From Steroidobacteraceae bacterium (lineage in GTDB: Bacteria > Pseudomonadota > Gammaproteobacteria > Steroidobacterales > Steroidobacteraceae), in the NCBI GenBank assembly GCA_036513855.1, contig DATBYD010000097.1:108705-172704 (forward strand): 64,000 bases of DNA, read 5' to 3'. The position numbers were made by a program, and so were the translations under genes. A model generated the notes under the pieces. That model worked only from the letters and a program-made list of their open reading frames with translations. It was not told the DNA's origin and did not search any database. Shown here one piece after another: positions 28,075-42,533 of the stretch; within the stretch, counting starts at the first letter, position 1; the number at the start of each line of letters is the position of its first letter.

Positions 28075-28854
28075 ATGCTGGCATTGGTCAGACAGGTCAG
28101 TCCGAACCTTGCGAAGTGCGAGCTGTCGTACCTCGAGCGCGCTGCTATCGATGGCGCGCGAGCCGTTCGCCAGCACTATGAATATACCAGCGTACTGCAA
28201 TCGCTCGGTTGCACCCTGGAGTGGCTGCCGCCACTCGCCCAACACCCCGACGGGGTATTTGTCGAAGATACTGCGGTCCTGCTGCCGCAGGTTGCGGTTG
28301 TCACCAGGCCCGGTGCCGTCTCGCGCCGCGGCGAAACGGCCAGCGTCGCCGAGGCACTGGGCGGCCGGATACCGGTGTTGCACATCAGCGAGCCGGGGTG
28401 TCTTGAGGGCGGCGACGTGCTGCTGATCGAGCGCACGCTCTATGTCGGCGCATCGGGGCGCACGAATCAGGCGGGGATCTCACAGCTCACGAGCGCACTC
28501 GAGCCCTTCGGCTACCGCGTGCAGGCGGTGAAGATGCAGGGATGTCTGCACCTGAAGAGCGCCTGCACCTACATCGCGCCGGGAGTCCTCCTGGTCAATC
28601 CGGCCTGGGTCGAGGCGGCGGCCTTCGCTTGCCCCGTCGTGATCGAGGTGCAGGAGCGCGAGCCCTACGCGGCCAACACCCTCACGGTAGGTGCAACCAC
28701 GCTGGTGAGCAGCGCCTACCCCAGGACCGAGCGGCGCCTGCAGGCGGCCGGGGTGAGGACACGCAGCGTCGACGTGAGCGAGTTGCACAAGGCGGAAGCG
28801 GCTCTCACCTGCATGAGCCTGCTGCTCGAGCCGAGCCTCAAGCCGGGGCGCTGA
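28075..28854 (+). CDS. Dimethylarginine dimethylaminohydrolase family protein (DDAH / amidinotransferase fold)
   Basis: Starts MLALVRQVSPNLAKCELSYLER. There is a C-terminal catalytic Cys context (EAALTCMSLL). The track start 27883 overlaps the divergent neighbour. Confidence 0.75.
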   Translation: MLALVRQVSPNLAKCELSYLERAAIDGARAVRQHYEYTSVLQSLGCTLEWLPPLAQHPDGVFVEDTAVLLPQVAVVTRPGAVSRRGETASVAEALGGRIPVLHISEPGCLEGGDVLLIERTLYVGASGRTNQAGISQLTSALEPFGYRVQAVKMQGCLHLKSACTYIAPGVLLVNPAWVEAAAFACPVVIEVQEREPYAANTLTVGATTLVSSAYPRTERRLQAAGVRTRSVDVSELHKAEAALTCMSLLLEPSLKPGR

Positions 28855-29938
28855 TCGCGCGCAGTCCGGTCAGGAAGGCGGAGACCTCCGGCTCGGTTCC
28901 GATGGTGATGCGGCACCAGCTTTCGTAAGGCGCGAATCTGCGGCCGACCAGGATATTGCGCTGGCGCATGAGCTCGGTGAAGCGCTTGAGCGGCATACCG
29001 GTATCGAAGAATACGAAATTGCCGTGCGGCTCGGCGTACCTGAGATTCAGACGGGTAAGTTCAGTGGTGACGCGTGTGCGGCTTGCTACGATGCGGCGGC
29101 CGCAGTCGGCGCGAAACGCCTCATCGGCAAGACTGGCGCGGGCGGCACGCACGGCGAAGATGTTGGGGGTGGCCATGCGCGCGCCGGCAAGTTCGGTGGC
29201 AAGCTGCGGGCTTGTGACACCGTAGCCGAAACGCAGCCCGGCCATGCCGTGGATCTTGGAGAACGTGCGCAGCACGACCACGCGCCGGCCGCGCTGCACC
29301 AGATCGGCGACCGATCCGACGCCTGCTCCGGCGAAGTCCATGTACGCCTCATCGACGATGGTCAGGACCGGCTCCGGGAGCGATTCCACGAAGGCGCGGA
29401 TGTCTGCGGCCGGCAGTGCCGTACCGGTCGGATTGTTCGGATTGCAGAGATAGATCGCGCGCGTGCCCTGCGACACGGCGGCACGCATGGCGGGCAGGTC
29501 GTGTCGCAGCTGCGTGTCCACCGGGACGAACTTCAGCGTCGCGCCGCGCAGCTTCGCGTACTCGGTCAGTTCCGCGTAGGAGGGCTCTGCGGCGATGATC
29601 TCACCGCCGTCACGGGCGCACAGCAGCCCGAGCGCACATAACAACTCCCCGGAGCCGCTGCCGGTGACGATGTGCTCCACTGCGATGCCCTCCTGTCGGG
29701 CGATCGCCGCCACCAGATCGTTCATTTCGGCGTCCGACGGGTAGCGGCAGCCGTGCGCGATGGCGTGACTCACCGCAAGGCGCGCCGCCGGCGAGGGTCC
29801 GTAGGGATTCTCGTTCCAACACAGGACGAGCGGCCCTGGGTCTGCGGGCGATTTGTCGGCTGCCGCGCGCACGGCAAAGCCGGGCCCCCCCAGCAGCAGC
29901 GCCGAGGCGCTCAACAGTTCGCGGCGGCTCACGCTCAT
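28838..29938 (-). CDS. PLP-dependent aminotransferase (HisC-like class) with a twin-arginine signal peptide
   Basis: N-terminus MSVSRRELLSASALLLGGPGFAVRA (SRRxLL Tat motif). The aminotransferase core includes NENPYGP, YLCNPNNPTG and FSKIHGMAGLRFGY (PLP Lys). Confidence 0.8.
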   Translation of the reverse strand: MSVSRRELLSASALLLGGPGFAVRAAADKSPADPGPLVLCWNENPYGPSPAARLAVSHAIAHGCRYPSDAEMNDLVAAIARQEGIAVEHIVTGSGSGELLCALGLLCARDGGEIIAAEPSYAELTEYAKLRGATLKFVPVDTQLRHDLPAMRAAVSQGTRAIYLCNPNNPTGTALPAADIRAFVESLPEPVLTIVDEAYMDFAGAGVGSVADLVQRGRRVVVLRTFSKIHGMAGLRFGYGVTSPQLATELAGARMATPNIFAVRAARASLADEAFRADCGRRIVASRTRVTTELTRLNLRYAEPHGNFVFFDTGMPLKRFTELMRQRNILVGRRFAPYESWCRITIGTEPEVSAFLTGLRAISAPA

Positions 29939-30054
29939 GGCTTCAACGCTCCTGTGCAAGGTACGGAAACGATACACCGTAGCCGTAGGCGCGACTACGC
30001 GCACGCATTGCCGCGGCCCGGCCCCGTGCCGCGCTGTGCTATGTTTCTCGGGCC

Positions 30055-32697: not shown

Positions 32698-32936
32698 CCG
32701 ACGCGTTCCCGGCTTGAGGCCGAGCCGGCCTTGGCGAGCCCTACCCTCGGTGCCGACCACGCTCGCGCCGAGCCGACCACACCCCAGGCGCGGTGGCGGC
32801 CGCGACTTCCTTCACCGGGAACGCTGCGGCGCAAATTCATGCGGCAAATCTTCACGCGGCCTGCATCCATTGCACGGGCGGCTTCGTAGCAGTGAGGGAA
32901 GACCACAAACCCCTCCTGTTCTTTAAGGGAACGCCC

Positions 32937-34484
32937 ATGAAACTATCGATACCCCATCGCATTGTGGCCGGTGCAGGGGCTGCAGCGCTCGCCTGCGCGG
33001 CAATAGCCTCCAGTCACCGGGAAGCTCCTTTCATCACAACCCGCCCGAAGGTCGACGGCACCGACTTCTACATGTTCAACAGTTATGAGCCCGGGCGTGC
33101 CGGCTACGTGACGCTGATCGCCAATTACCAGCCGTTTGAATTCCCGCAGGGCGGTCCGAACTACTACACCATGGATCCCAACGCCCTCTACGAAATTCAC
33201 GTCGACAACAACGGCGACGGCAAGGAAGACCTGACGTTCCAGTTTCGCTTCAAGGTTGCCGACAAGGGACTGACGGTACCGGCGGGCGGCAAGTCGGTGC
33301 CGGTGCCTTTGGTGAACATCGGTCCCCTCAGTGCCACCAGCACCAGCACTCAGAACGTGCTGGAGAGCTATAGCCTGACCCTGGTACGGGGTGACCGGCG
33401 CACAGGGCAGGCCGCGCTCGTGACCGATGCCGTCAACGGCAGTGCCACCTTCGCCGCTCCCTACGACAATATCGGTATGAAGTCGATTCCTGACTATGCC
33501 AGCTACGCCGATGCGTTCATCTACAACATCAATATTCCCGGGTGCAGCAAGCCGGGCAGGGTGTTCGTCGGTCAGCGCAAAGACCCGTTCGTGGTCAATC
33601 TTGGCGAGACCTTCGACCTGGTCAATATCAAGTACCCGGTACAGGAACTGGCGCCCGCCGGTGTGAACGCCCGACAGCTCGCGCCGAATTCCGTGGCCGG
33701 TTACAACGTCACGTCGCTGGTTCTCGAAGTCGCCGCTGCCTGTCTCACCGCCGGTAGTGATCCGGTCATCGGTGGCTGGACGACCGCCAGCATTCGCCAG
33801 GCTGCGGTGTTCAATCCGTTCCCGCAAAGCGCCAACAGCGTGGCTAGTGTGGGTAAAGTGACACAGCCGACCGGCCCGTCAGTCGAGGGCGGCGCCTGGA
33901 CCCAGGTATCGCGCCTGGGGATGCCGCTGGTGAACGAGCTGGTCATCGGACTGCCTGACAAGGATCGCTTCAACTCCTCTGAGCCAAAGAATGATGGGCA
34001 GTTTGCCGACTACGTGACCAACCCGTCACTGCCGGTGCTGCTGCAGGTGTTGTTCGGAGCTCAGGGCGTGCGAGCACCCAATGTCTACCCGCGCACCGAT
34101 CTGGAGGAGGCCTTCCTGACCGGCATCAAGGGGCTGAACCAGCCAGCAACTGTCACCGCCTCGGAAATGCTGCGTCTGAATACCAGCACCCCGGTGACAC
34201 CGGTGGCAGCGCAGAGCGATCTGGGCGTGCTGGGAGGCGATTCCGCCGGTTTCCCGAATGGTCGCCGCCCGGTCGACGACGTGGTGACCATCACGCTGCG
34301 GGTGGCCATGGGCATCCTGCTGTCGCCCTTCAACGGCAGCGCGGCTGATCCGGACCCCTCATCGGACGCCTCGCGCCAGCTGCACTACACCGACGGCGTC
34401 GAGCCGAACCCGGCCGACTATCTGAGCGTGTTCCCGTACGTCAACACGCCGCTCGCCGGTTCACCGACCAGTGCCAACGACTAA
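32937..34484 (+). CDS. Secreted DUF4331 domain protein
   Basis: Signal peptide followed by the SHREAPFI motif, DGTDFYMF and LYEIHVDNNGDG. AAGGGA lies 8 nt upstream of the ATG. The track start 32793 would bury the signal peptide. Confidence 0.85.
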   Translation: MKLSIPHRIVAGAGAAALACAAIASSHREAPFITTRPKVDGTDFYMFNSYEPGRAGYVTLIANYQPFEFPQGGPNYYTMDPNALYEIHVDNNGDGKEDLTFQFRFKVADKGLTVPAGGKSVPVPLVNIGPLSATSTSTQNVLESYSLTLVRGDRRTGQAALVTDAVNGSATFAAPYDNIGMKSIPDYASYADAFIYNINIPGCSKPGRVFVGQRKDPFVVNLGETFDLVNIKYPVQELAPAGVNARQLAPNSVAGYNVTSLVLEVAAACLTAGSDPVIGGWTTASIRQAAVFNPFPQSANSVASVGKVTQPTGPSVEGGAWTQVSRLGMPLVNELVIGLPDKDRFNSSEPKNDGQFADYVTNPSLPVLLQVLFGAQGVRAPNVYPRTDLEEAFLTGIKGLNQPATVTASEMLRLNTSTPVTPVAAQSDLGVLGGDSAGFPNGRRPVDDVVTITLRVAMGILLSPFNGSAADPDPSSDASRQLHYTDGVEPNPADYLSVFPYVNTPLAGSPTSAND

Positions 34485-34496
34485 AGGAGGAGGACC

Positions 34497-34760
34497 ATGA
34501 ACCGCAACCGTTATGCGATCGGCGCGGCGGCACTGGCCACCATCATCCTGGCGTCCTGCGGTGGCAGCGATGGGGATAGTGGCACTGCAAGCACGGGCAG
34601 TAGCACCACCAGCACCACGAGCTCTTTCGATACCGCAGACGTGTGGGCTCAGGCGCTGCAGAAATCGGAAACCACGGAGCCGTACGCGCTCAACAATGGC
34701 GCAGTGGTGCTTTCCGATACCAGCGATACCACCCAACCGATCAGCATCAGCGGCCCCTAA
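34497..34760 (+). CDS. Small Ser/Thr-rich lipoprotein (87 aa), hypothetical
   Basis: A strong SD (AAGGAGGAGG) lies 4 nt before the ATG. It has a lipobox (IILASCGG) and an S/T-rich linker. It competes with the 5' extension of ORF 34513..35949 in another frame. Confidence 0.55.
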   Translation: MNRNRYAIGAAALATIILASCGGSDGDSGTASTGSSTTSTTSSFDTADVWAQALQKSETTEPYALNNGAVVLSDTSDTTQPISISGP

Positions 34761-34764
34761 AGCG

Positions 34765-35949
34765 ATGATGTCGCAATCGGTGTTGCAAGGCTGCCGCCGC
34801 CCGCGGATTGTCCGCGGGCGGCGGGCGGCCGCAGTGGTTCTCGCGCTCGCCCTGGTCGCAACAGCCGGCGCGACCCCATATGTTCCCGGCAACGATGCTG
34901 AGGTTCTCGCCCATCTGCCCGCGGGAGCCACCCATGCCAGCATCCAGCTTCGCCACCAGGCAGTGCAACGGCGCGATGTAGCGCTGCCGCTGGCGCAGTT
35001 CTACGTCTCGCAGGCGCGTGCGACCGGGGATCTGAGGTTTCTCGGCTATGCGGAAGGGGTGCTGGCGCCCTGGCTGCAGCGCTCGCCGCCCGATCCGGCG
35101 GCGCTGGTGCTGCAGGCGACGGTTCTGCAGAGCCGGCACTCCTTCGATGCCGCCCTCAATGAACTCGATCGGGCACTTCGCGCACGACCCGACGATGCCC
35201 AGGCATGGGTGACACGCGCGACGGTGTTACGGGTGTTGGGTCGCTACGATGAAGCCGAGCTCTCCTGCGAACGGCTGATCGCAGGCGATGCGGCCGTGGC
35301 GCAGTTGTGCACGCAGAGCCTGCGCGCCCTGAGCGGACATCTGCACTCCGCCTACCAGGCGGTTCGGCAACTGCCTCAGCAGTCCCTGTCCGTCGCTGCG
35401 CGCGCCTGGCGCTACTCGCAACTCGGCGAGATGGCTCAAAGCCTGGGCGATGAGCGGGCCGCCTCCCATTGGTTTGTCGAATGTCTGCAGCTTGCCCCCG
35501 ATGACCTGTACACGCGTGCTGCGTACGCGGACCTGTTGCTGCAGCAGGGCCGCGCCGTCGACACACTTGAGCTGCTCAAGGGCTTCGAATCGATGGAGCC
35601 GATGCTGTTGCGCATGGCGATCGCTCAGCGGCAGCTCAACGACCCGCAGCTGCCCGAAACCCGGGCACTGCTTGCCAATGCCTTCGCGGTCGAGGAACAG
35701 CGCAACGAGGCGGTGCATCGCCGCGAGCAGGCGCGCTTCCTGCTCGATGTCGAAGCGCAACCGTCCGCGGCCCTGGCCGCCGCGCGACAGAACTGGCAAG
35801 TCCAGCGCGAGCCGGCCGACCTATTGATTCTGCTGCGCGCGGCCCACGCCGCGCACCAGAACGGCGCAGCTGCCGCGGCCGCGCAGTTCGCAAATCTGCA
35901 CGCGATTGAGGACGTTCGCCTGCGCCCGTACCTGGAGCCGGCGCCATGA
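34765..35949 (+). CDS. Periplasmic tetratricopeptide-repeat protein
   Basis: Signal-like N-terminus (RRAAAVVLALALVATAGA) and repeated about 34-aa helical pairs with A/L/Y spacing. The start is the first Met after the upstream stop. Confidence 0.7.
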   Translation: MMSQSVLQGCRRPRIVRGRRAAAVVLALALVATAGATPYVPGNDAEVLAHLPAGATHASIQLRHQAVQRRDVALPLAQFYVSQARATGDLRFLGYAEGVLAPWLQRSPPDPAALVLQATVLQSRHSFDAALNELDRALRARPDDAQAWVTRATVLRVLGRYDEAELSCERLIAGDAAVAQLCTQSLRALSGHLHSAYQAVRQLPQQSLSVAARAWRYSQLGEMAQSLGDERAASHWFVECLQLAPDDLYTRAAYADLLLQQGRAVDTLELLKGFESMEPMLLRMAIAQRQLNDPQLPETRALLANAFAVEEQRNEAVHRREQARFLLDVEAQPSAALAAARQNWQVQREPADLLILLRAAHAAHQNGAAAAAAQFANLHAIEDVRLRPYLEPAP

Positions 35950-37061
35950 AGGTGCGCCAACGGCTGGCGCTGATTCTCGTCCTCACCGCGACGGCGGCGC
36001 AGGCGCACGTGGCGAGCAACGGCTTCCTCGACGTGGAGGTGCGCGGTCGCGATCTGAGCGGCTCGATCGAGCTGGCAGTGCGTGACGTGGAGCTTGCGAT
36101 TGGCGTGGATGCAAACCGCGATGGACAGGTGACCTGGGGGGAGCTGCGGGCCGCCGAGCCGCAACTCGCCGCGTATGTGGCGCAGCACCTGAGCGTCGGG
36201 GTCGCCGATTCTGCCTGCGCCGTGCGCCTCGGGTCTTTGCAGGTCAACCCGCGCGTGGACGGAAACTACGCCTGGCTGCCCTTCACGGCGCGCTGCCCGG
36301 CGCTCGTGCGGGAGCTTCAGATCCAATACACGATGATGGCGGGCATCGACCCTTCGCATCGCGGTTTGCTGCGACTGAGCGCTGGCAGCCTGGTGCAGAC
36401 TTTCGTGCTCGGTGGCGCGGATGCCCCGGCCACCTTATCGGTTGAGCGCTCCTCGCCCTGGCGGGCAATCGAACAGTACTTTCGCGCCGGAACCTGGCAT
36501 ATCTGGAGCGGTATCGATCATCTGCTGTTTCTGCTGTCGCTGCTGCTGCCGGCAGTGCTGGTACGCGCGCACGGGCGGTGGGAGCCGGTGGAAAACGCAC
36601 GGCCCGCACTGCTCAGCATCGTGAAAGTGGTGACCGCCTTTACCCTCGCCCACTCCATCACCCTGTCACTCGCGGCCCTGAACGTAGTGCACTTGCCGAG
36701 CCGCCTGACCGAGTCGGTGATCGCAGCCTCGATCATCGTGGCCGCGCTGAACAACATCTTTCCTGCGGTCACCGAGTCGCGCGCGCGCATCGCATTCGCC
36801 TTCGGCCTGCTGCACGGCTTTGGTTTCGCCTCGGTGCTGGCGGACATGGGACTGCCGAGCGGAGCGCGTCTGCTCAGCCTCGTGGCGTTCAACTGCGGCA
36901 TCGAGGCCGGGCAACTGGCGCTGGTACTCGCGGTCATGCCGATCGCCTATGCTGTGCGTCGAGTAAGCGCCTACCGTCGCGCCGTGCTCCCCTGGGGTTC
37001 GGCGGCCATCGCAAGCCTGGCACTGGTGTGGTTCATACAGCGTGCATTCCTTGCGCAATGA
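35946..37061 (+). CDS. HupE/UreJ family membrane protein with an extended N-terminal periplasmic domain
   Basis: Signal peptide ending AAQA|HVAS. The periplasmic segment of about 170 aa contains DANRDGQVTWGE. The C-terminal six-span domain carries the HupE pattern (WSGIDHLLFLLSLLL, AFTLAHSITLS, FGLLHGFGFA). Both junctions are ATGA overlaps. Confidence 0.8.
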   Translation: MKVRQRLALILVLTATAAQAHVASNGFLDVEVRGRDLSGSIELAVRDVELAIGVDANRDGQVTWGELRAAEPQLAAYVAQHLSVGVADSACAVRLGSLQVNPRVDGNYAWLPFTARCPALVRELQIQYTMMAGIDPSHRGLLRLSAGSLVQTFVLGGADAPATLSVERSSPWRAIEQYFRAGTWHIWSGIDHLLFLLSLLLPAVLVRAHGRWEPVENARPALLSIVKVVTAFTLAHSITLSLAALNVVHLPSRLTESVIAASIIVAALNNIFPAVTESRARIAFAFGLLHGFGFASVLADMGLPSGARLLSLVAFNCGIEAGQLALVLAVMPIAYAVRRVSAYRRAVLPWGSAAIASLALVWFIQRAFLAQ

Positions 37062-39268
37062 CTGCCGGCCGCTGCACGGCGCCGTGGCGCGCGCTCGTCG
37101 CCTTGGCGACCTCGTGGCCTGGATTTGTCGGCGCCCAGACGCTCGACGTCGCTTCGGGTTCGATGACGGAGGTGACCGTCACCGCAGCGCGGCTCGATCT
37201 GATGGGCGAGAGCACCACGGCCAGCGAGGGGGTTGTCGCGGACGACGAATTGCAGTTGACTCCCGCGTACCGTCCGGGGCAGCTGCTGGAGACGGTGCCC
37301 GGTCTCATCGTCACCCTGCACAGCGGGGAGGGGAAGGCTAACCAGTTTCTGATGCGAGGCTACAACCTCGACCACGGCACCGATCTTGCCGTGTTCGTCG
37401 ATGGCATGCCGGTCAATCAACCTACCCATGCGCACGGCCAGGGCTACACCGATCTGAATTTCATCATCCCCGAGCTCGCCGACGCCCTGAGCTTCACCAA
37501 GGGACCGTATTACGCCTCAGTCGGCGATTTCGGCTCGGTTGGATCGGTGCGCCTCGATTATCGGGACTCCATTCCTGAGCAGGCCAGTGCCGGCGTCGGC
37601 ACCTTCGATTACCAGCGAGTGTTCGCGGCCGGCTCGCAGCCGCTGGCGGGCGGGGAGCTGTTGGCGGCGGCCGAAGTGCGCCATTACGACGGACCGTTCA
37701 CCACTCCTGATGATGCGCGTAAGGAGAACCTGGTGCTGCGTTACAGCCAGGCGGAGGGTGATCGCAGTTACTCGATCACCGCGATGTACTACCACCAGCT
37801 GTGGACCAACACCACGGACATCCCGGAGCGGGCCATCAGTGAAGGACTGGTCTCGGACCGCTTCGGCACGCTGAACCCCACCGACGGCGGTCGCGCTGAG
37901 CGCGCCAGCCTCTCTGCTCAGTATCGGCAAAGCTGCGGCAGTGGCCGCCTGTCCGCAGACGGCTACCTGATCTACAACCAGCTGCACCTCTACAACGACT
38001 TCACGCACTACCTGGTCGACCCGGTTCACGGTGACCAGGAGGATCAGTTCGAGAACCGGCACGTGATCGGAATGGCGGCCGAGTGCTCCTGGCCTGCGCT
38101 GGGGGAGTCGCTCAGGAGCGAACTCACCTTGGGGGTCGCCTCACGCTATGACGCGCTTGGCGTCGGCCGGCTGCCGAGCGAGGATCGCCTGCCACTGCCG
38201 CCGCAGACCGACCCGCCCGCGTTTTCAAATTCGGACCAGGTCTATCTGTTCAGCGGCAGCCTCTACGCGCAGGCGGTCACCCACTGGACCGCGCGGCTGC
38301 GCAGCGTCATCGGTGTGCGCGACGACTACCAGCACGGCACCGACGTTGACTATCTTGCATCGCTGCATGCACTGGCAGGCTTCTCCAACGCCGGAACGGT
38401 CAGCCAGTCACTCTGGCAGCCGAAAGCCAGCCTGATTTTCTCCCCGAGTCGCAGCGTCGAGCTGTACGCAAGTGCGGGCCGCGGCTTTCACAGCGCCGAC
38501 CTGCGCGGTGTCAATCAGGACCGCAGCGACGGCGCGCAGCCGCCAACGCCGCTACTGGCAAGCCAGCTGGGCGAGGAGCTCGGGCTTCGTACCCAGCCGC
38601 GGCGTGATCTGACCTTCACCCTGGCTTTGTACAACCTGTATCAGCAATCCGAGACGACCTACGATCCGGACATCGGCACCGATATCGCAGGACCACCCAG
38701 CCGGCGCTACGGATTCGAGTTCAACCTCACCTACCAGATTCGGCAGTGGCTGGAGCTGTACGGCAGCTACTCAGGAAACCACGCGCGCTTCACGCGCGAC
38801 TTCGACGACGGTACCGGTCACCTGGGTACCTACATTCCCAATGCACCGGTCGCGACCGGGGACCTGGCGCTCTACGTGACGAACCTCGGTCGCTGGAGCG
38901 GTGCTCTCGGGTACCGCTATCTCAGTCATTACCCGCTCTCTTCGGGACCGTGCGTGGATGCTGCGGCAATGAAGGACTTCCCGGGGGTCGGTGGCTGTGC
39001 GAACGCCCCGACGCTCCCCGGTCAGGTCGATGCAAAAGGGTTCGGGCAGTTGAACCTTGATGTGCACTACGCAGGCACGGCGGGGTGGGGCGCCACACTC
39101 GGGGTCTATAACCTCCTCAATACCCGCGCTGCGGCTGCGCAGTTCTGGTATGTCGACCGCCTGGCCGGGGAGGTCGGCTCATACCCGGACGGGCGTGCCG
39201 ATGTTCACGAGCATCCGCTCGAGCCCTTCATGATCAGACTGACGATCGCGAAGAGCTTCGGCAGCTGA
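37058..39268 (+). CDS. TonB-dependent outer-membrane receptor
   Basis: Signal peptide, TonB-box-like TEVTVTA, plug motifs (LETVPGLIV, RGYNLDHGTDLAVFVDGMPVN) and a long beta-barrel. The start is at the ATG overlapping the upstream stop; the track ORF start 36578 is an extension through hupE. Confidence 0.85.
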   Translation: MTAGRCTAPWRALVALATSWPGFVGAQTLDVASGSMTEVTVTAARLDLMGESTTASEGVVADDELQLTPAYRPGQLLETVPGLIVTLHSGEGKANQFLMRGYNLDHGTDLAVFVDGMPVNQPTHAHGQGYTDLNFIIPELADALSFTKGPYYASVGDFGSVGSVRLDYRDSIPEQASAGVGTFDYQRVFAAGSQPLAGGELLAAAEVRHYDGPFTTPDDARKENLVLRYSQAEGDRSYSITAMYYHQLWTNTTDIPERAISEGLVSDRFGTLNPTDGGRAERASLSAQYRQSCGSGRLSADGYLIYNQLHLYNDFTHYLVDPVHGDQEDQFENRHVIGMAAECSWPALGESLRSELTLGVASRYDALGVGRLPSEDRLPLPPQTDPPAFSNSDQVYLFSGSLYAQAVTHWTARLRSVIGVRDDYQHGTDVDYLASLHALAGFSNAGTVSQSLWQPKASLIFSPSRSVELYASAGRGFHSADLRGVNQDRSDGAQPPTPLLASQLGEELGLRTQPRRDLTFTLALYNLYQQSETTYDPDIGTDIAGPPSRRYGFEFNLTYQIRQWLELYGSYSGNHARFTRDFDDGTGHLGTYIPNAPVATGDLALYVTNLGRWSGALGYRYLSHYPLSSGPCVDAAAMKDFPGVGGCANAPTLPGQVDAKGFGQLNLDVHYAGTAGWGATLGVYNLLNTRAAAAQFWYVDRLAGEVGSYPDGRADVHEHPLEPFMIRLTIAKSFGS

Positions 39269-39283
39269 AGCGAATCGGGGCGG

Positions 39284-40360
39284 CTAAGGCATACCCAGCA
39301 GCTGTTGGGCCCCCCGCCACAGCTGCTCGACGACCCGCGCCGCGGGCTGCTCGCGTGCCATCGCTGCGGCCTGTCCCGCCCAGGCCTGCATGCGTTCGAG
39401 ATCGTTCTCGGCGAGCGCGGCAGCGCGCATGGCCGCGGTCAGCGCGCGCTGCACCGGGTAGGCGGCCGGGGACGGCGCGGCGGGTGCCATGGCGGCACGT
39501 ACGTAATTCGTGGCGATGCTGCGTCCCGGGCGGCCGCTGAAGACGCAACTGACCACGGTATCTTCCGGCGCGGTACGGGCCAATGCATCGGCCCAGGCCT
39601 TGTTGATCCTCGCCTCCGGGCAGCGCAGAAATGCGGTGCCGATCTGGACCGCGCTCGCGCCGAGCAACAGCGCGGCCGCCACCGCGCGCGGATCGGCGAT
39701 GCCTCCGGCCGCGACCACCGGGACCCTGACGGCGTCGGCGATCGCCGGCAGCAGCGCGATCAAGCCGACCTGGCGCCGTTCAGCTTCGGACGCCGTGAAA
39801 CTGGCGCGATGACCACCGGCCTCCATGCCCTGTGCCACCACCACGTCGGCCCCGGCGGATTCGGCCGCGCGCGCCTCGCTGACCGTCGAGACGTTCGCGA
39901 ACCAGGCGATGCCGCGCTGCTTGAGAGCGCTGACGAACGCCGGAGCGAACAGCCCCATCACGGAGGATATGACCGGCGGATGCGCCGCCAGCATGGCCTG
40001 GCACTGCTGCTCGAAATCCGGCGGCCGCGCATTGCCGGCGGTCGCCGGCACTGGCGGACCCCAGCCGGACAGGAAGGCGCGCACCTCGGCCTCGTGCGGT
40101 TCGTTGCGCAGCGGCGCACCATCGGCAATCCACACATTCAGCTGAAAGGCCCCGCCACCGTGACTGCGGACCTCCTTACACCAGGTTGTGATTTCTTCAG
40201 GCGACATGAGCAGCACGCCGCAGGCCCCAAGGCCGCCGGCGTTCGCGACCGCAATCGACAACTGCGGCGCGGATGCGCCTGCCATCGGCGCGAGCAGAAT
40301 GGGTCGTTTGATTCCGAAACGCGTGCAGAAACTTTCGACACGATTGCCCGTGCTCATCAT
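39284..40360 (-). CDS. Nitronate monooxygenase (NMO / 2-nitropropane dioxygenase family)
   Basis: FGIKRPILLAPMAGASAP ... VVAQGMEAGGH ... PVVAAGGIAD FMN-binding TIM barrel motifs. The start is at the internal MM. Confidence 0.85.
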   Translation of the reverse strand: MMSTGNRVESFCTRFGIKRPILLAPMAGASAPQLSIAVANAGGLGACGVLLMSPEEITTWCKEVRSHGGGAFQLNVWIADGAPLRNEPHEAEVRAFLSGWGPPVPATAGNARPPDFEQQCQAMLAAHPPVISSVMGLFAPAFVSALKQRGIAWFANVSTVSEARAAESAGADVVVAQGMEAGGHRASFTASEAERRQVGLIALLPAIADAVRVPVVAAGGIADPRAVAAALLLGASAVQIGTAFLRCPEARINKAWADALARTAPEDTVVSCVFSGRPGRSIATNYVRAAMAPAAPSPAAYPVQRALTAAMRAAALAENDLERMQAWAGQAAAMAREQPAARVVEQLWRGAQQLLGMP

Positions 40361-40424
40361 CGAAGCCTCCCTTTTACGTCCTGCTATCCTACCCGTCCCC
40401 CGCACGTGAAAAGGTTCTGGCGTC

Positions 40425-42533
40425 ATGTTGAATAACAAAAATCGCCTGGCGATAGCCACTGCCTGCCTGTTGCTCCCGCTCGCCGTCAGTGCTGAAGCAC
40501 CGGCGCAAAGAACGCCGATCACCCACGAGAAGCTTTGGATGATGAAGCGCGTGAGCGACGCTTCCGTGAGCCCGGACGGCAAATGGGTGGTCTTCTCCGT
40601 GCTCGAGCCCTCGTACGATCAGGACAAGGAGGTGAGCGATCTGTGGCTTATCCCCGTGGACGGCAGTCAGCCGCCGCGCCGTCTGACGAATACCAAGGCG
40701 CCCGAGAAAGACGTTGCCTGGTCACCCGACAGCCATGCCATTGCCTTTGCGACCAAGCGCGAGGGGGATGAGGTCGAGCAGATCTACATTCTGGATCTCG
40801 CCGCAGGCGGTGAGGCGCGCAGGTTGAGTAACCTCTCGAGCGGTGCTGCACATCCGCAGTGGCGTCCGGACGGAAAGGCGATGCTGTTCGAGTCCTCTGT
40901 CTTTTCGAACGCACTCGACGATGAGGCCAACAAAAAAATCGCCGCCGAACACAAGGAGCGCAAGTACAACGTGCGTGTCTACGAGCACTTTCCGGTGCGC
41001 TACTGGAACCATTGGCTCGATGAGCGCCAGCCGACCATCATGGTGCAGTCTTTGCAGGATGGCTCCGTCGCGAAGGACATTCTGTCACCCACCGCGCTGG
41101 CCCGCACACCGGGCTTTTCCGGTGTCGCGGACGATACCTCGGTGTCACTGGCCCCGATCTGGAGCCCGGATGGCCAGGAGATCGTCTTTGCGGCAACGTC
41201 CGAGCACTGGAATGCCGCGTTCGCACACGTTGGCTACCACCTCTACCGGATGCCCGCCGACGGAGGCGCTGAGCCGCGTCCGCTAACCCCGGCATCCGGG
41301 GTCTACAGCAGCGCCAAGTTTGCACCCGGTGGCGGCGCACTCTTCTTCAAGTACGCGCCCCAGGACGACGAGATCTATCACCAGGAGCGCCTGGAACGCG
41401 TGCCGTGGCCCGCCGCAGGGGAGGCGAGTCCCGTCACGCGCGACTTCGATCGCGAAGTCGCGGCCTTCGCGCTCACACCCGACAGCCGCAGCGTGTACCT
41501 GCTCATTCCGGAGGCGGGGAGGCAGAACCTCTACCGGGTCTCGGCGGGCGGCGGACAGCCGGTGCTCGTCGTCGCGCCCGCCGTCGGCGGCTACACCGCG
41601 CTCGAGATTGCCAAAAAGAGCCCCAGGCCGGTGCTTATCGCCGCCTACGGCAGCTCGGTCAATCCGGCCGAGATCGTGCGCATCGATCCGCAGGCGCGCA
41701 GGCACACCAATCTCACGAACATCGACACCGCGACGGCGGCGGCGATCGACTGGTCGTCCCCGCAGCACTTCTTCTTCACCAGCGCCGAGGGCCGCAGCAT
41801 TCACAACATGATCGTGCTGCCACCTGCCTTCGATGCCACCAGAAAGTATCCGCTGCTGGTGCTCATCCACGGGGGCGCGGCCAGCAACAATCCCGACCAG
41901 ATCGGACTGCGCTGGAACTATCACCTGCTGGGCGCCCCGGGCTACGTGGTGCTGATGACCGATTACACCGGCTCCACGAGTTTCGGCGAGAAGTTCGCCC
42001 AGGCCATCAAGCTCGATCCGCTTAAGACGCCCGGCGAGGAGATCAATCTGGCGGTCGATGAGGCGCTAAAGCGTTATCCGTTCATCGACGGCTCGCGGAT
42101 GTGCGCTGCGGGGGCAAGTTATGGCGGCCACCTGGCCAACTGGCTCGAGGCTACCACCACAAGGTACCGCTGCATCATCAGCCATGCGGGAGAGGTGGAT
42201 CTGACCACCCAGTGGGGCGAGAGCGATTCGATTTACAGCCGCGAGCTCAACAACGGCGGCCCGCCCTGGATGAACAATCCCATCTGGCGCGAGCAGAGTC
42301 CGCTTACCTACGCTGCCAACTGGAAGACGCCGATGCTGCTGAGCATCGGTGAGCGCGATTTCCGGGTGCCCATCGGCAACACGCTGGAGAACTGGAGCAC
42401 CCTGCAGCGCATGCACGTGCCGAGCCGCCTTCTGGTGTGGCCGGACGCCTGGCACTGGATCCTAAAGCCCGAGGACAGCCGCCACTTCTACCAGGAAGTG
42501 CACGCCTGGCTTGCGAAGTACCTACAACAATGA
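40425..42533 (+). CDS. S9 family serine peptidase (prolyl oligopeptidase / acylaminoacyl peptidase type)
   Basis: Signal peptide, a beta-propeller with WSPDG repeats, and a C-terminal hydrolase domain with GASYGGH, an Asp and a His. Confidence 0.9.
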   Translation: MLNNKNRLAIATACLLLPLAVSAEAPAQRTPITHEKLWMMKRVSDASVSPDGKWVVFSVLEPSYDQDKEVSDLWLIPVDGSQPPRRLTNTKAPEKDVAWSPDSHAIAFATKREGDEVEQIYILDLAAGGEARRLSNLSSGAAHPQWRPDGKAMLFESSVFSNALDDEANKKIAAEHKERKYNVRVYEHFPVRYWNHWLDERQPTIMVQSLQDGSVAKDILSPTALARTPGFSGVADDTSVSLAPIWSPDGQEIVFAATSEHWNAAFAHVGYHLYRMPADGGAEPRPLTPASGVYSSAKFAPGGGALFFKYAPQDDEIYHQERLERVPWPAAGEASPVTRDFDREVAAFALTPDSRSVYLLIPEAGRQNLYRVSAGGGQPVLVVAPAVGGYTALEIAKKSPRPVLIAAYGSSVNPAEIVRIDPQARRHTNLTNIDTATAAAIDWSSPQHFFFTSAEGRSIHNMIVLPPAFDATRKYPLLVLIHGGAASNNPDQIGLRWNYHLLGAPGYVVLMTDYTGSTSFGEKFAQAIKLDPLKTPGEEINLAVDEALKRYPFIDGSRMCAAGASYGGHLANWLEATTTRYRCIISHAGEVDLTTQWGESDSIYSRELNNGGPPWMNNPIWREQSPLTYAANWKTPMLLSIGERDFRVPIGNTLENWSTLQRMHVPSRLLVWPDAWHWILKPEDSRHFYQEVHAWLAKYLQQ

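Follow-up and report, generated by a model that had tools for sequence, protein, structure and literature searches.

The closest described relatives of the locus presented here are the anglerases, domains with an N-terminal histidine that are fused to HupE/UreJ-2 permeases and comprise Ang-1 from Pseudomonadota and Ang-2 from Actinomycetota, four separate clades having been reported (Franco Cairo et al., Nat Commun 2025, PMC12537917). RbAng-1a (PDB 9GCE) carries a mono-histidine brace and binds Cu2+ with a Kd of 74 nM and Ni2+ with a Kd of 220 nM; its authors drew a comparison between the brace and copper import proteins, and proposed that the anglerase 'fishes' metal for the permease (PMC12537917). 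The locus considered here is a five-gene operon at positions 32937-39268 of a 64,000-nucleotide (64-kb) stretch of DNA, hereafter the window, from a Steroidobacteraceae bacterium (GenBank assembly GCA_036513855.1, contig DATBYD010000097.1, positions 108,705 to 172,704). It encodes a DUF4331 protein, a small lipoprotein, a tetratricopeptide repeat (TPR) protein, a long HupE/UreJ-2 protein and a TonB-dependent transporter (TBDT), and the first four of these genes constitute a conserved, previously undescribed module. The fourth gene product (gene 4 below) resembles the anglerase fusions in its signal peptide, its predicted N-terminal histidine, a periplasmic beta-sandwich of about 155 residues and its PF13795 domain. 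However, it is only 22% identical to RbAng-1a, it has an EF-hand-like loop and a conserved cysteine pair, and its neighborhood (DUF4331, lipoprotein, TPR protein and SigK-like promoter) differs from that of the published anglerases. For the latter, the commonest category of neighbor is 'unknown function', and DUF4331 is named only twice in the text and supplements, in a table of DUF4198 neighbors, the module and its regulation being absent (PMC12537917).

Likenesses extend to other described systems. The beta-sandwich of the N-terminal domain of gene 4 is also found in ZrgA from Vibrio cholerae (zrgABCDE) and PA4063 from Pseudomonas aeruginosa (PA4063-4066), which are periplasmic metal partners of an inner-membrane importer. 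These two proteins are free-standing and work with ABC importers, whereas the window domain is fused to a HupE/UreJ-2 channel and placed under a promoter of the extracytoplasmic function (ECF) sigma type. The ZrgA and PA4063 systems are under Zur control. In the CopC-CopD and YcnJ/YcnI systems of Pseudomonas and Bacillus subtilis, a copper domain with an N-terminal histidine hands metal to a fused or adjacent permease, and an accessory secreted copper binder is present, as could be the case here. Nevertheless, neither in sequence nor in fold was a relationship to CopC, CopD or YcnI detected, and control is exerted by CsoR/YcnK or CopRS in those systems, compared with a SigK-like ECF sigma factor in this one. 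The azurin-OprC pair of P. aeruginosa, a copper system served by the H2 type VI secretion system, combines a secreted metal binder with a co-regulated TBDT (PMC6907878; type VI metal effectors, PMC8602904), an arrangement that DUF4331 and the TBDT would match, together with the position of DUF4331 within type II secretion clusters of Rhodobacterales plasmids. By contrast, DUF4331 would be exported through Sec and type II secretion rather than type VI secretion, and most DUF4331 loci have no TBDT. Finally, the sigma factors encoded beside DUF4331 clusters are closest to SigK of Mycobacterium tuberculosis, and their anti-sigma factors carry an RskA_C domain as in the SigK-RskA pair, but the known SigK targets in that organism are mpt70/mpt83 and not DUF4331.

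Metal routes made of a TBDT and a permease are already known, as is, since 2025, the anglerase-HupE/UreJ-2 fusion. The new elements are the DUF4331 four-gene module with its lipoprotein and TPR partners, the shared SigK-like promoter and regulon, a putative amino-terminal Cu- and Ni-binding (ATCUN) motif on DUF4331, and a link to type II secretion. A literature search for DUF4331, PF14224 and HupE_UreJ_2 found no paper in the full-text collection. The features of the operon are the following:

32862-32888, + strand, promoter dependent on a SigK-like ECF sigma factor: -35 element TGCATCC (32862-32868), 16-nt spacer, -10 element CGTA (32885-32888)
32937-34484, + strand, DUF4331 protein, 515 aa, Pfam PF14224
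34497-34760, + strand, small lipoprotein, 87 aa, lipobox L-A-S-C (Cys21)
34765-35949, + strand, TPR protein, 394 aa, several Pfam TPR families
35946-37061, + strand, long HupE/UreJ-2 protein (gene 4), 371 aa, PF13795 on its C-terminal half
35946-36473, + strand, Ang-1-like N-terminal domain of gene 4, predicted mature residue His21
36474-37061, + strand, HupE/UreJ-2 membrane domain of gene 4, residues 177-371, PF13795
37058-39268, + strand, TBDT, 736 aa, Plug and TonB barrel domains

The five genes form one operon transcribed from the SigK-like ECF promoter. They lie on the same strand with gaps of 12 nt (DUF4331/lipoprotein) and 4 nt (lipoprotein/TPR) and two ATGA stop/start overlaps (TPR/HupE and HupE/TBDT) that are read directly in the sequence. 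The coordinates of the original prediction, which a model had made from the letters of the window, were reproduced. A ribosome-binding site, AGGAGGAGG, is found inside the 12-nt gap 3' of the DUF4331 gene. The same five product lengths were obtained in independent gene calls made on a JGI metagenome contig (L001) that is near-identical to the window, and relatives of the window proteins are annotated as coming from Steroidobacteraceae or Gammaproteobacteria metagenome-assembled genomes (MAGs). The gene identities proposed at the outset were checked with hidden Markov models, and Pfam confirmed DUF4331, TPR, HupE_UreJ_2, and Plug plus barrel, to which NCBIfam contributed no specific assignment. 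Between the five genes, no terminator-like or sigma-70-like site was found beyond background, and the single ECF-type promoter is located 5' of the first gene, its end being separated from the DUF4331 ATG by 48 nt, with none inside the cluster; the idea of one transcript free of internal promoters thus holds. The sequence TGCATCC-N16-CGTA has this sole match in the 64-kb window (0.04 expected) and is still unique when one mismatch is allowed, so there is no second copy within the cluster. As the downstream gene is convergent, the transcript must end 3' of position 39268.

How far this organization is conserved was assessed from 80 loci, retrieved from GTDB contigs (one genome per species) with an alignment of 30 diverse DUF4331 members (alignment A1). 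Neighbors were counted in the 54 loci with at least 3.5 kb on each flank of DUF4331, and colinearity was evaluated by tblastn of the window proteins and all-against-all clustering of open reading frames (ORFs). The DUF4331 family is large, with more than 5,000 clusters (50% identity) at E <= 0.001 and 792 at E <= 1e-30, and is spread over at least seven phyla. The retrieved loci come from Steroidobacteraceae, Solimonas, Duganella, Massilia, Undibacterium, Marinobacter, Alcanivorax, Acinetobacter tjernbergiae, Variovorax and Rubrivivax, among others, and also from Nitrospira, Corallococcus, Polyangia, Thermoanaerobaculia, Phycisphaerae and Pedosphaera. TPR homologues come after DUF4331 and the lipoprotein in 40 of the 54 loci, and HupE/UreJ-2 genes, always together with the TPR gene, are found in 39. 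Less frequent neighbors are an ECF sigma factor (22/54), an anti-sigma factor (16/54) and a TBDT of the window's type (14/54). Based on these counts, the conserved core consists of four genes: DUF4331, lipoprotein, TPR and HupE/UreJ-2. The order DUF4331, small ORF, TPR and HupE/UreJ-2 with an N-terminal extension is colinear in Steroidobacteraceae, Duganella/Massilia, Marinobacter, Alcanivorax, Chitinimonas, Pseudoalteromonas, Lichenicola, Nitrospira, Myxococcota and Verrucomicrobiota. In a plasmid collection, the module was found on pHP-187 of Marinobacter adhaerens, in Pseudoalteromonas donghaensis and in Lichenicola. Because the grouping recurs across phyla, it is not due to chance. The expectation that DUF4331 would be linked to TPR and HupE-like genes in other genomes was borne out; the TBDT, adjacent in 14 of the 54 loci, proved to be an accessory.

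A universal link between DUF4331 and HupE/UreJ-2 was considered and rejected. In a distant DUF4331 clade (about 35-40% identical; 80 metagenome loci, L084-L163), a HupE/UreJ-2 gene is adjacent in one case, and the anglerase permease is the partner in the proteobacterial-type DUF4331 clade. The recurrent neighbors in the distant clade are ECF sigma factors (12 of the 80 loci), RskA-like anti-sigma factors (10) and TPR proteins (7-10), and the oldest and widest links of DUF4331 are therefore with the SigK-like regulator pair, the TPR protein and a small partner protein. Two small proteins of about 110 aa, both without a Pfam family, were also observed in this clade (e.g. L124:6649-6984 and L123:8568-8906). 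One is encoded upstream in 15 loci and has a twin-arginine-like signal; the other is encoded downstream in 13 loci, is His-rich and starts with MSHEYGHTHHLHG.

The promoter is shared as well. Gapped k-mer enrichment in the 200 nt 5' of DUF4331 gave one dominant signal, TG[CA]ATCC-N16-CGTA, present upstream of DUF4331 in 53/77 loci with a spacer of exactly 16 nt (17 nt in two loci) and at a distance of 6-150 nt, mostly 30-125 nt, from the start codon. Across 2.26 Mb of locus sequence, on both strands, the motif is almost confined to four kinds of place. It precedes DUF4331, ECF sigma genes (L023, L040, L171), TBDT genes that belong to the same subfamily as that of the window (in Duganella L012 and L013, and in L052) and a divergent TPR-HupE operon (L054). 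The L052 contig, on which the motif precedes a TBDT fragment, is a perfect inverted duplication about its center with mirrored gene order, probably an assembly artifact.

The sigma factor encoded beside DUF4331 clusters has M. tuberculosis SigK as its closest solved structure (4NQW, E 5e-28; next ECF 7e-18), and the anti-sigma factor of the relatives carries an RskA_C domain. The pair is co-directional with the module in Chitinimonas and Pseudoalteromonas. In a close relative of the window (L171; GCA_018241445.1; 83% DUF4331 identity), it is divergent from DUF4331, with a promoter copy on each side. There, the sigma/RskA_C operon (L171:1330-9620, - strand) continues into genes encoding FA_desaturase, amino-oxidase, DUF1365, two CMAS (cyclopropane-fatty-acid-synthase-like), DUF2878 and DUF1295 proteins, a set that resembles the M. 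tuberculosis sigK locus. This arrangement suggests that a conserved SigK regulon of ancient origin unites the DUF4331 module with lipid modification. The same contig encodes a 281-aa secreted protein without a Pfam family (L171:339-1184, + strand), with a third copy of TGCATCC-N16-CGTA upstream, and this protein is a possible further member of the regulon. No homologue of the sigma or anti-sigma factor was found in the 64-kb window, and the genes for the sigma factor and its RskA-type anti-sigma factor lie in another part of this genome. The view that the operon has no regulator is consequently true only locally: given its conserved ECF promoter, it belongs to a SigK-like ECF regulon. Features of FecI/FecR-type cell-surface signaling were not found, the TBDT having no N-terminal STN domain and the anti-sigma factors of the relatives being of the RskA_C type.

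The membrane component of the module is gene 4. PF13795 matches residues 178-339 only (E 7.6e-47, 159 bits for a cut-off of 24.5), and the classical HupE_UreJ model PF04955 remains below its cut-off (17.1 vs 23). The additional N-terminal domain of about 155 residues begins, after a predicted signal peptide ending in A-Q-A, with H21. This A-x-A followed by histidine is invariant in homologues with a correctly called start (38 sequences compared), and H1 is invariant in alignment A3. The domain also has an EF-hand-like loop, D55-A-N-R-D-G-Q-V-T-W-G-E66 (36108-36143), which reads D-x-[DN]-x-D-G-x-[ILV]-T-W-x-E in the family, and the conserved residues C91, C117, D135 and H138. In the membrane half, H185-IWSGI-D191-H192 (36498-36521) shows no variation among 60 close homologues and is also conserved in 38 distant homologues; we take this HX5DH motif in the first membrane helix to be the signature of HupE/UreJ-type Ni/Co permeases. 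LHGFGFA and FNxGxExGQ are kept in this half too.

In the AlphaFold model of gene 4 (pLDDT 82, pTM 0.78), the membrane half is a helical bundle. The best PDB match of the N-terminal domain by Foldseek is 9GCE, the Cu-bound RbAng-1a (E 5.2e-7, prob 1.00, 165 aligned columns, 22% identity); next come two Zn proteins, ZrgA and PA4063 (E 2e-5 to 1e-3, prob 1.0, 13-16% identity). Neither phmmer nor a 19-sequence profile found 9GCE in the PDB, the profile picking up only calmodulin EF-hand loops, and there were weak sub-threshold matches to PF20420 (DUF6702) and to EF-hand models. Because 9GCE is the best structural match and was missed by sequence methods, gene 4 is, as judged from its predicted structure, a divergent member of the known anglerase-HupE/UreJ-2 architecture. 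Its length, noted before as about twice that usual for HupE/UreJ proteins, is real and no longer unexplained, as the extra half fits this architecture (PMC12537917).

DUF4331 itself covers its Pfam model completely, residues 25-505 matching positions 1-421 of the 421 of PF14224 (E 3e-147, 491.7 bits for a cut-off of 27). The predicted signal peptide spans residues 1-24 and ends in A-I-A, which would leave S25-S26-H27-R-E-A-P as the mature N-terminus (SSH codons at 33009-33017). Essentially all 77 loci have an A-x-A followed by SSH(REAP) at the predicted cleavage site. Of the 139 family representatives that have a Met start, 114 keep X-X-His in register and 103 have the SSH tripeptide, and the -1 residue is Ala in 97 and Gly in 10, most of the remainder being N-terminal fragments. 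Divergent members keep the histidine at position 3, in the form of GGH, LDH, RDH or SDH. A free N-terminus followed by X-X-His, in which residue 2 is not proline, is the ATCUN motif, which binds Cu2+ and Ni2+. If cleaved as predicted, DUF4331 would thus present an ATCUN-type Cu2+/Ni2+ site at its mature N-terminus.

Other conserved features of the protein are an Asp-rich loop, VDNNGDGKED (DNDGDxxED in the family), the GFPNGRRPVDDV motif, and, in the alignments, QVSRLGxPLVNE, GFPNGRRxxDDVVDI and FPYL. Its AlphaFold model (pTM 0.79, pLDDT 74) has a confident beta-rich core. A PDB sequence search with DUF4331 gave no match, and Foldseek of the model against the PDB returned nothing better than E 0.086 (TM about 0.1), the likeness to P19/FtrA that appeared in its list being dismissed as noise. 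The predicted fold appears to have no solved relative.

The 87-aa lipoprotein encoded next to DUF4331 matched no Pfam or NCBIfam family. It has a lipobox (L18-A19-S20-C21) that fits [LVI][ASTVI][GAS]C, followed by a Gly/Ser/Thr-rich linker, a short amphipathic stretch and, near the C-terminus, two acidic [DE]-x-[ST]-[EQ]-P motifs (ETTEP and DTTQP). An equivalent small lipoprotein lies directly 3' of DUF4331 in about 50 of the 77 loci, according to ORF lists read by eye. These partners share a lipobox, a low-complexity linker, an amphipathic stretch and two [DE]-x-[ST]-E-P motifs, the second of which is at or near the C-terminus. The TPR protein scores above the Pfam cut-offs for TPR_2, TPR_16, TPR_1, TPR_17 and ANAPC3, and it is probably periplasmic because of its N-terminal signal-like segment RRAAAVVLALALVATAGA, after which the sequence continues with TP.

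The last gene of the operon encodes a 22-strand-type TBDT with a Plug domain (PF07715, E 3e-12) and a barrel (PF00593, E 6e-25). It belongs to a divergent subfamily marked by the motif GEGKANQF(L/F)(M/L)RG(Y/F)NLDHGTD. None of the NCBIfam substrate classes (siderophore, heme, BtuB, PqqU) was matched above cut-off, the best being TIGR01783 (64 bits vs 223.5), and the sequence had no match in the PDB even at E 10. Homologues with 31-39% identity adjoin DUF4331 clusters in Duganella, Pseudoduganella, Acinetobacter, Nitrospira and others, several of them with their own copy of the ECF promoter, and their position varies between upstream, downstream, divergent and convergent. On grounds of frequency, the TBDT was rejected as a core member of the module; it is a frequent accessory.

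Other genomic contexts bear on the function of the module. In a deltaproteobacterial MAG (L064), DUF4331 and TPR are followed, in the place of HupE/UreJ-2, by a NicO-family protein, carrying an N-terminal histidine behind its signal peptide and a His-rich loop, and by a second, sub-threshold NicO-like protein. In three loci HupE/UreJ-2 is replaced by DUF4198, which in two of them (L034 and L076) comes directly after DUF4331 and the lipoprotein; the DUF4198 family binds Ni2+ (PMC12537917). A Nitrospira locus (L055) has a gene for a TonB_C protein between the lipoprotein and TPR genes. On four Rhodobacterales plasmids, from Jannaschia, Sulfitobacter, Paracoccus and Marinovum (L165:7813-19072, L166:8259-19545, L168:8238-19557 and L169:7345-17473), a complete type II secretion cluster surrounds the genes for DUF4331 and a small lipoprotein, which come directly after the A24 prepilin peptidase gene. 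This embedding suggests that DUF4331 is exported beyond the outer membrane in these cases. The ECF promoter motif is absent from these four loci, and no type II secretion gene was found in the window.

Two further neighborhoods were observed. In Acinetobacter tjernbergiae (L019:5104-7833), genes for an MbnB/TglH/ChrH-family enzyme, a DUF2063 protein and a membrane protein judged DoxX-like by eye, a set of the bufferin-type peptide modification kind, lie between an ECF sigma gene and the DUF4331-lipoprotein-TPR-TBDT cluster, and this locus has no HupE/UreJ-2. On plasmid pHP-187 of M. adhaerens HP15 (L164:1470-8518), genes for a PhoD-family alkaline phosphatase, a metallophosphoesterase, a DUF3299 protein and a PKD-domain protein precede the module. 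This single case may be a coincidence or a hint of a link to phosphate or metallo-enzymes.

Five lines of evidence point to a role of the operon in metal handling: the HX5DH motif; the structural match of the N-terminal domain to Ang-1, ZrgA and PA4063; the replacement of HupE/UreJ-2 by NicO or DUF4198 proteins; the presence of a TonB gene within a cluster; and the ATCUN-type N-terminus of DUF4331. On balance, we lean towards the operon being an envelope-spanning module for the capture and import of a divalent transition metal under SigK-like control, with Cu2+ or Ni2+ the most likely substrate and Zn2+ a possible one. In this regard, the original prediction of a self-contained metal acquisition route stands for the metal-handling role; the TBDT as a core part and the freedom from regulation have to be given up, and uptake itself is something that we infer. 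DUF4331 would be exported by Sec and, after cleavage behind A-x-A, would expose Ser-Ser-His, with metal being bound in the periplasm, at the surface or outside the cell. The small lipoprotein encoded beside it could tether or escort DUF4331 at the outer membrane, across which the co-regulated TBDT, where present, would move the metal or a metal-loaded ligand. The periplasmic TPR protein could be a scaffold, with either the conserved N-terminal peptide of DUF4331 or the lipoprotein's acidic C-terminal peptide as its possible ligand. Finally, the Ang-1-like domain would take the metal on its N-terminal histidine and deliver it, via the fused HupE/UreJ-2 channel with its HX5DH motif, to the cytoplasm.

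Several observations weigh against metal import. The regulator is a SigK/RskA-type stress sigma factor and not a metal-starvation repressor, and in the close relative L171 the same sigma factor drives lipid-modifying enzymes, which suits a regulon for envelope stress no less well than one for nutrition. An Rfam search of the window revealed no riboswitch or other RNA family. No match to E. coli-type Fur, NikR or Zur boxes was found in the window either, which is a weak negative because the consensus sequences come from other organisms. The TBDT is missing beside most DUF4331 loci, and the permease is nearly always missing in the distant DUF4331 clade. Most conserved positions of DUF4331 other than His27 are Asp, Arg, Gly or Pro, a pattern that would also suit a Ca2+-stabilized enzyme, and its conserved N-terminal peptide (residues 20-35) is of low confidence in the AlphaFold model. 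Lastly, for the published anglerases, metal binding was shown for the isolated domain only (PMC12537917).

If import is correct, a protein-based route of Cu/Ni capture would be added to bacterial metal homeostasis, and SigK-type sigma factors outside mycobacteria would gain an output. DUF4331 is among the larger uncharacterized families of secreted proteins, and it now has a defined module, a promoter, a candidate regulator and an ATCUN hypothesis; the module also links it to the newly described anglerase-permease proteins, for which it offers candidate partners and a candidate mode of regulation. A more far-reaching proposal, in our view rather unlikely, is that DUF4331 represents a new and widespread class of secreted protein metallophores. 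It would bind metal at its ATCUN site, be released to the surface or the medium (by a dedicated type II secretion system in some lineages) and be held or recycled by the lipoprotein. The captured Cu2+ or Ni2+ would come back through the TBDT and be passed, with the TPR protein as scaffold, to the anglerase channel, the whole being switched on by the SigK-like sigma factor. Such a cycle would provide a metal-related output for the long-enigmatic SigK/RskA family of regulators.

Among the alternatives to import, the one that survives best, although we hold it to be somewhat unlikely, is defense against envelope or metal stress. In this case, the module would buffer or relocate toxic metal, with DUF4331 and the Ang domain as periplasmic sinks, or would remodel the envelope together with lipid-modifying genes. 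The type of regulator, a SigK-like sigma factor with an RskA_C anti-sigma factor, would suit a redox, envelope or metal-excess signal, and the autoregulated sigma operon of L171 runs into desaturase, amine oxidase, DUF1365 and CMAS-like genes. Likewise, the Acinetobacter ECF sigma factor, of the same BLAST cluster, is encoded between the DUF4331 cluster and the MbnB/DUF2063 bufferin-type pair, and no starvation-type operator was found in the window. However, a TBDT and a TonB gene are parts of energy-coupled import rather than of efflux or buffering, the module has no conserved efflux pump or oxidase, and the literature cited in PMC12537917 describes the HupE/UreJ and NicO relatives as importers.

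A classical Ni/Co permease operon serving Ni enzymes or vitamin B12, in which HupE/UreJ-2 would import Ni2+/Co2+, the TBDT would take up a Ni/Co chelate and DUF4331 would be a periplasmic Ni binder, is in our opinion unlikely. This scheme accounts well for the HupE/UreJ-2 family membership with its HX5DH motif, for the NicO-type proteins and Ni-binding DUF4198 at the same position in other DUF4331 loci, and for the established capacity of ATCUN sites to bind Ni2+ as well as Cu2+. It is harder to reconcile with the genes that accompany the module: no urease, hydrogenase, cobalamin or NikR gene is recurrent in the window or in related loci, and neither a B12 or other riboswitch nor a NikR-type box occurs in the window. 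Moreover, the only solved relative of the N-terminal domain prefers Cu2+, and the next structural relatives bind Zn2+.

Least probable of all, and in our view quite doubtful, is that DUF4331 is a secreted Ca2+-dependent enzyme, such as a phosphoesterase or another hydrolase of anionic substrates, with the transporters supplying its cofactor metal or taking up its product and SSHREAP being catalytic or used for docking. In its favor, the invariant Asp/Arg/Asn clusters (DNxGDxxED, GFPNGRRxxDDVxD, R326, K342, R386, R413) resemble Ca2+/anion sites, the M. adhaerens module follows PhoD and metallophosphoesterase genes, exoenzymes are typically encoded within type II secretion clusters, as DUF4331 is in some loci, and the conservation of REAP beyond X-X-His exceeds what ATCUN requires. 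Against it, Pfam, NCBIfam, Foldseek and a sequence search of the PDB revealed no similarity to any enzyme family, the phosphatase neighborhood is one case only, and the recurrent partners of DUF4331 are metal-handling proteins.

Should the metal reading be wrong, the module and its regulon would still define an unexplained envelope system that is common in soil and aquatic bacteria.

Two minor observations concern other genes of the window. Downstream, the convergent nitronate-monooxygenase-like ORF (window 39284-40582, - strand) encodes 432 aa, compared with 201 aa called on the near-identical contig (L001:16243-16848), and this mismatch points to a frameshift or a difference in start site between the assemblies. 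Upstream, at 28838-30004 (- strand), an ORF for a class I/II aminotransferase (histidinol-phosphate-aminotransferase-like) has a twin-arginine-like signal, SRRELLSASALLLGG...AVRAAA, at its putative start. If this putative start codon is the one used, the signal would place a pyridoxal phosphate (PLP) enzyme in the periplasm, which would be unusual.

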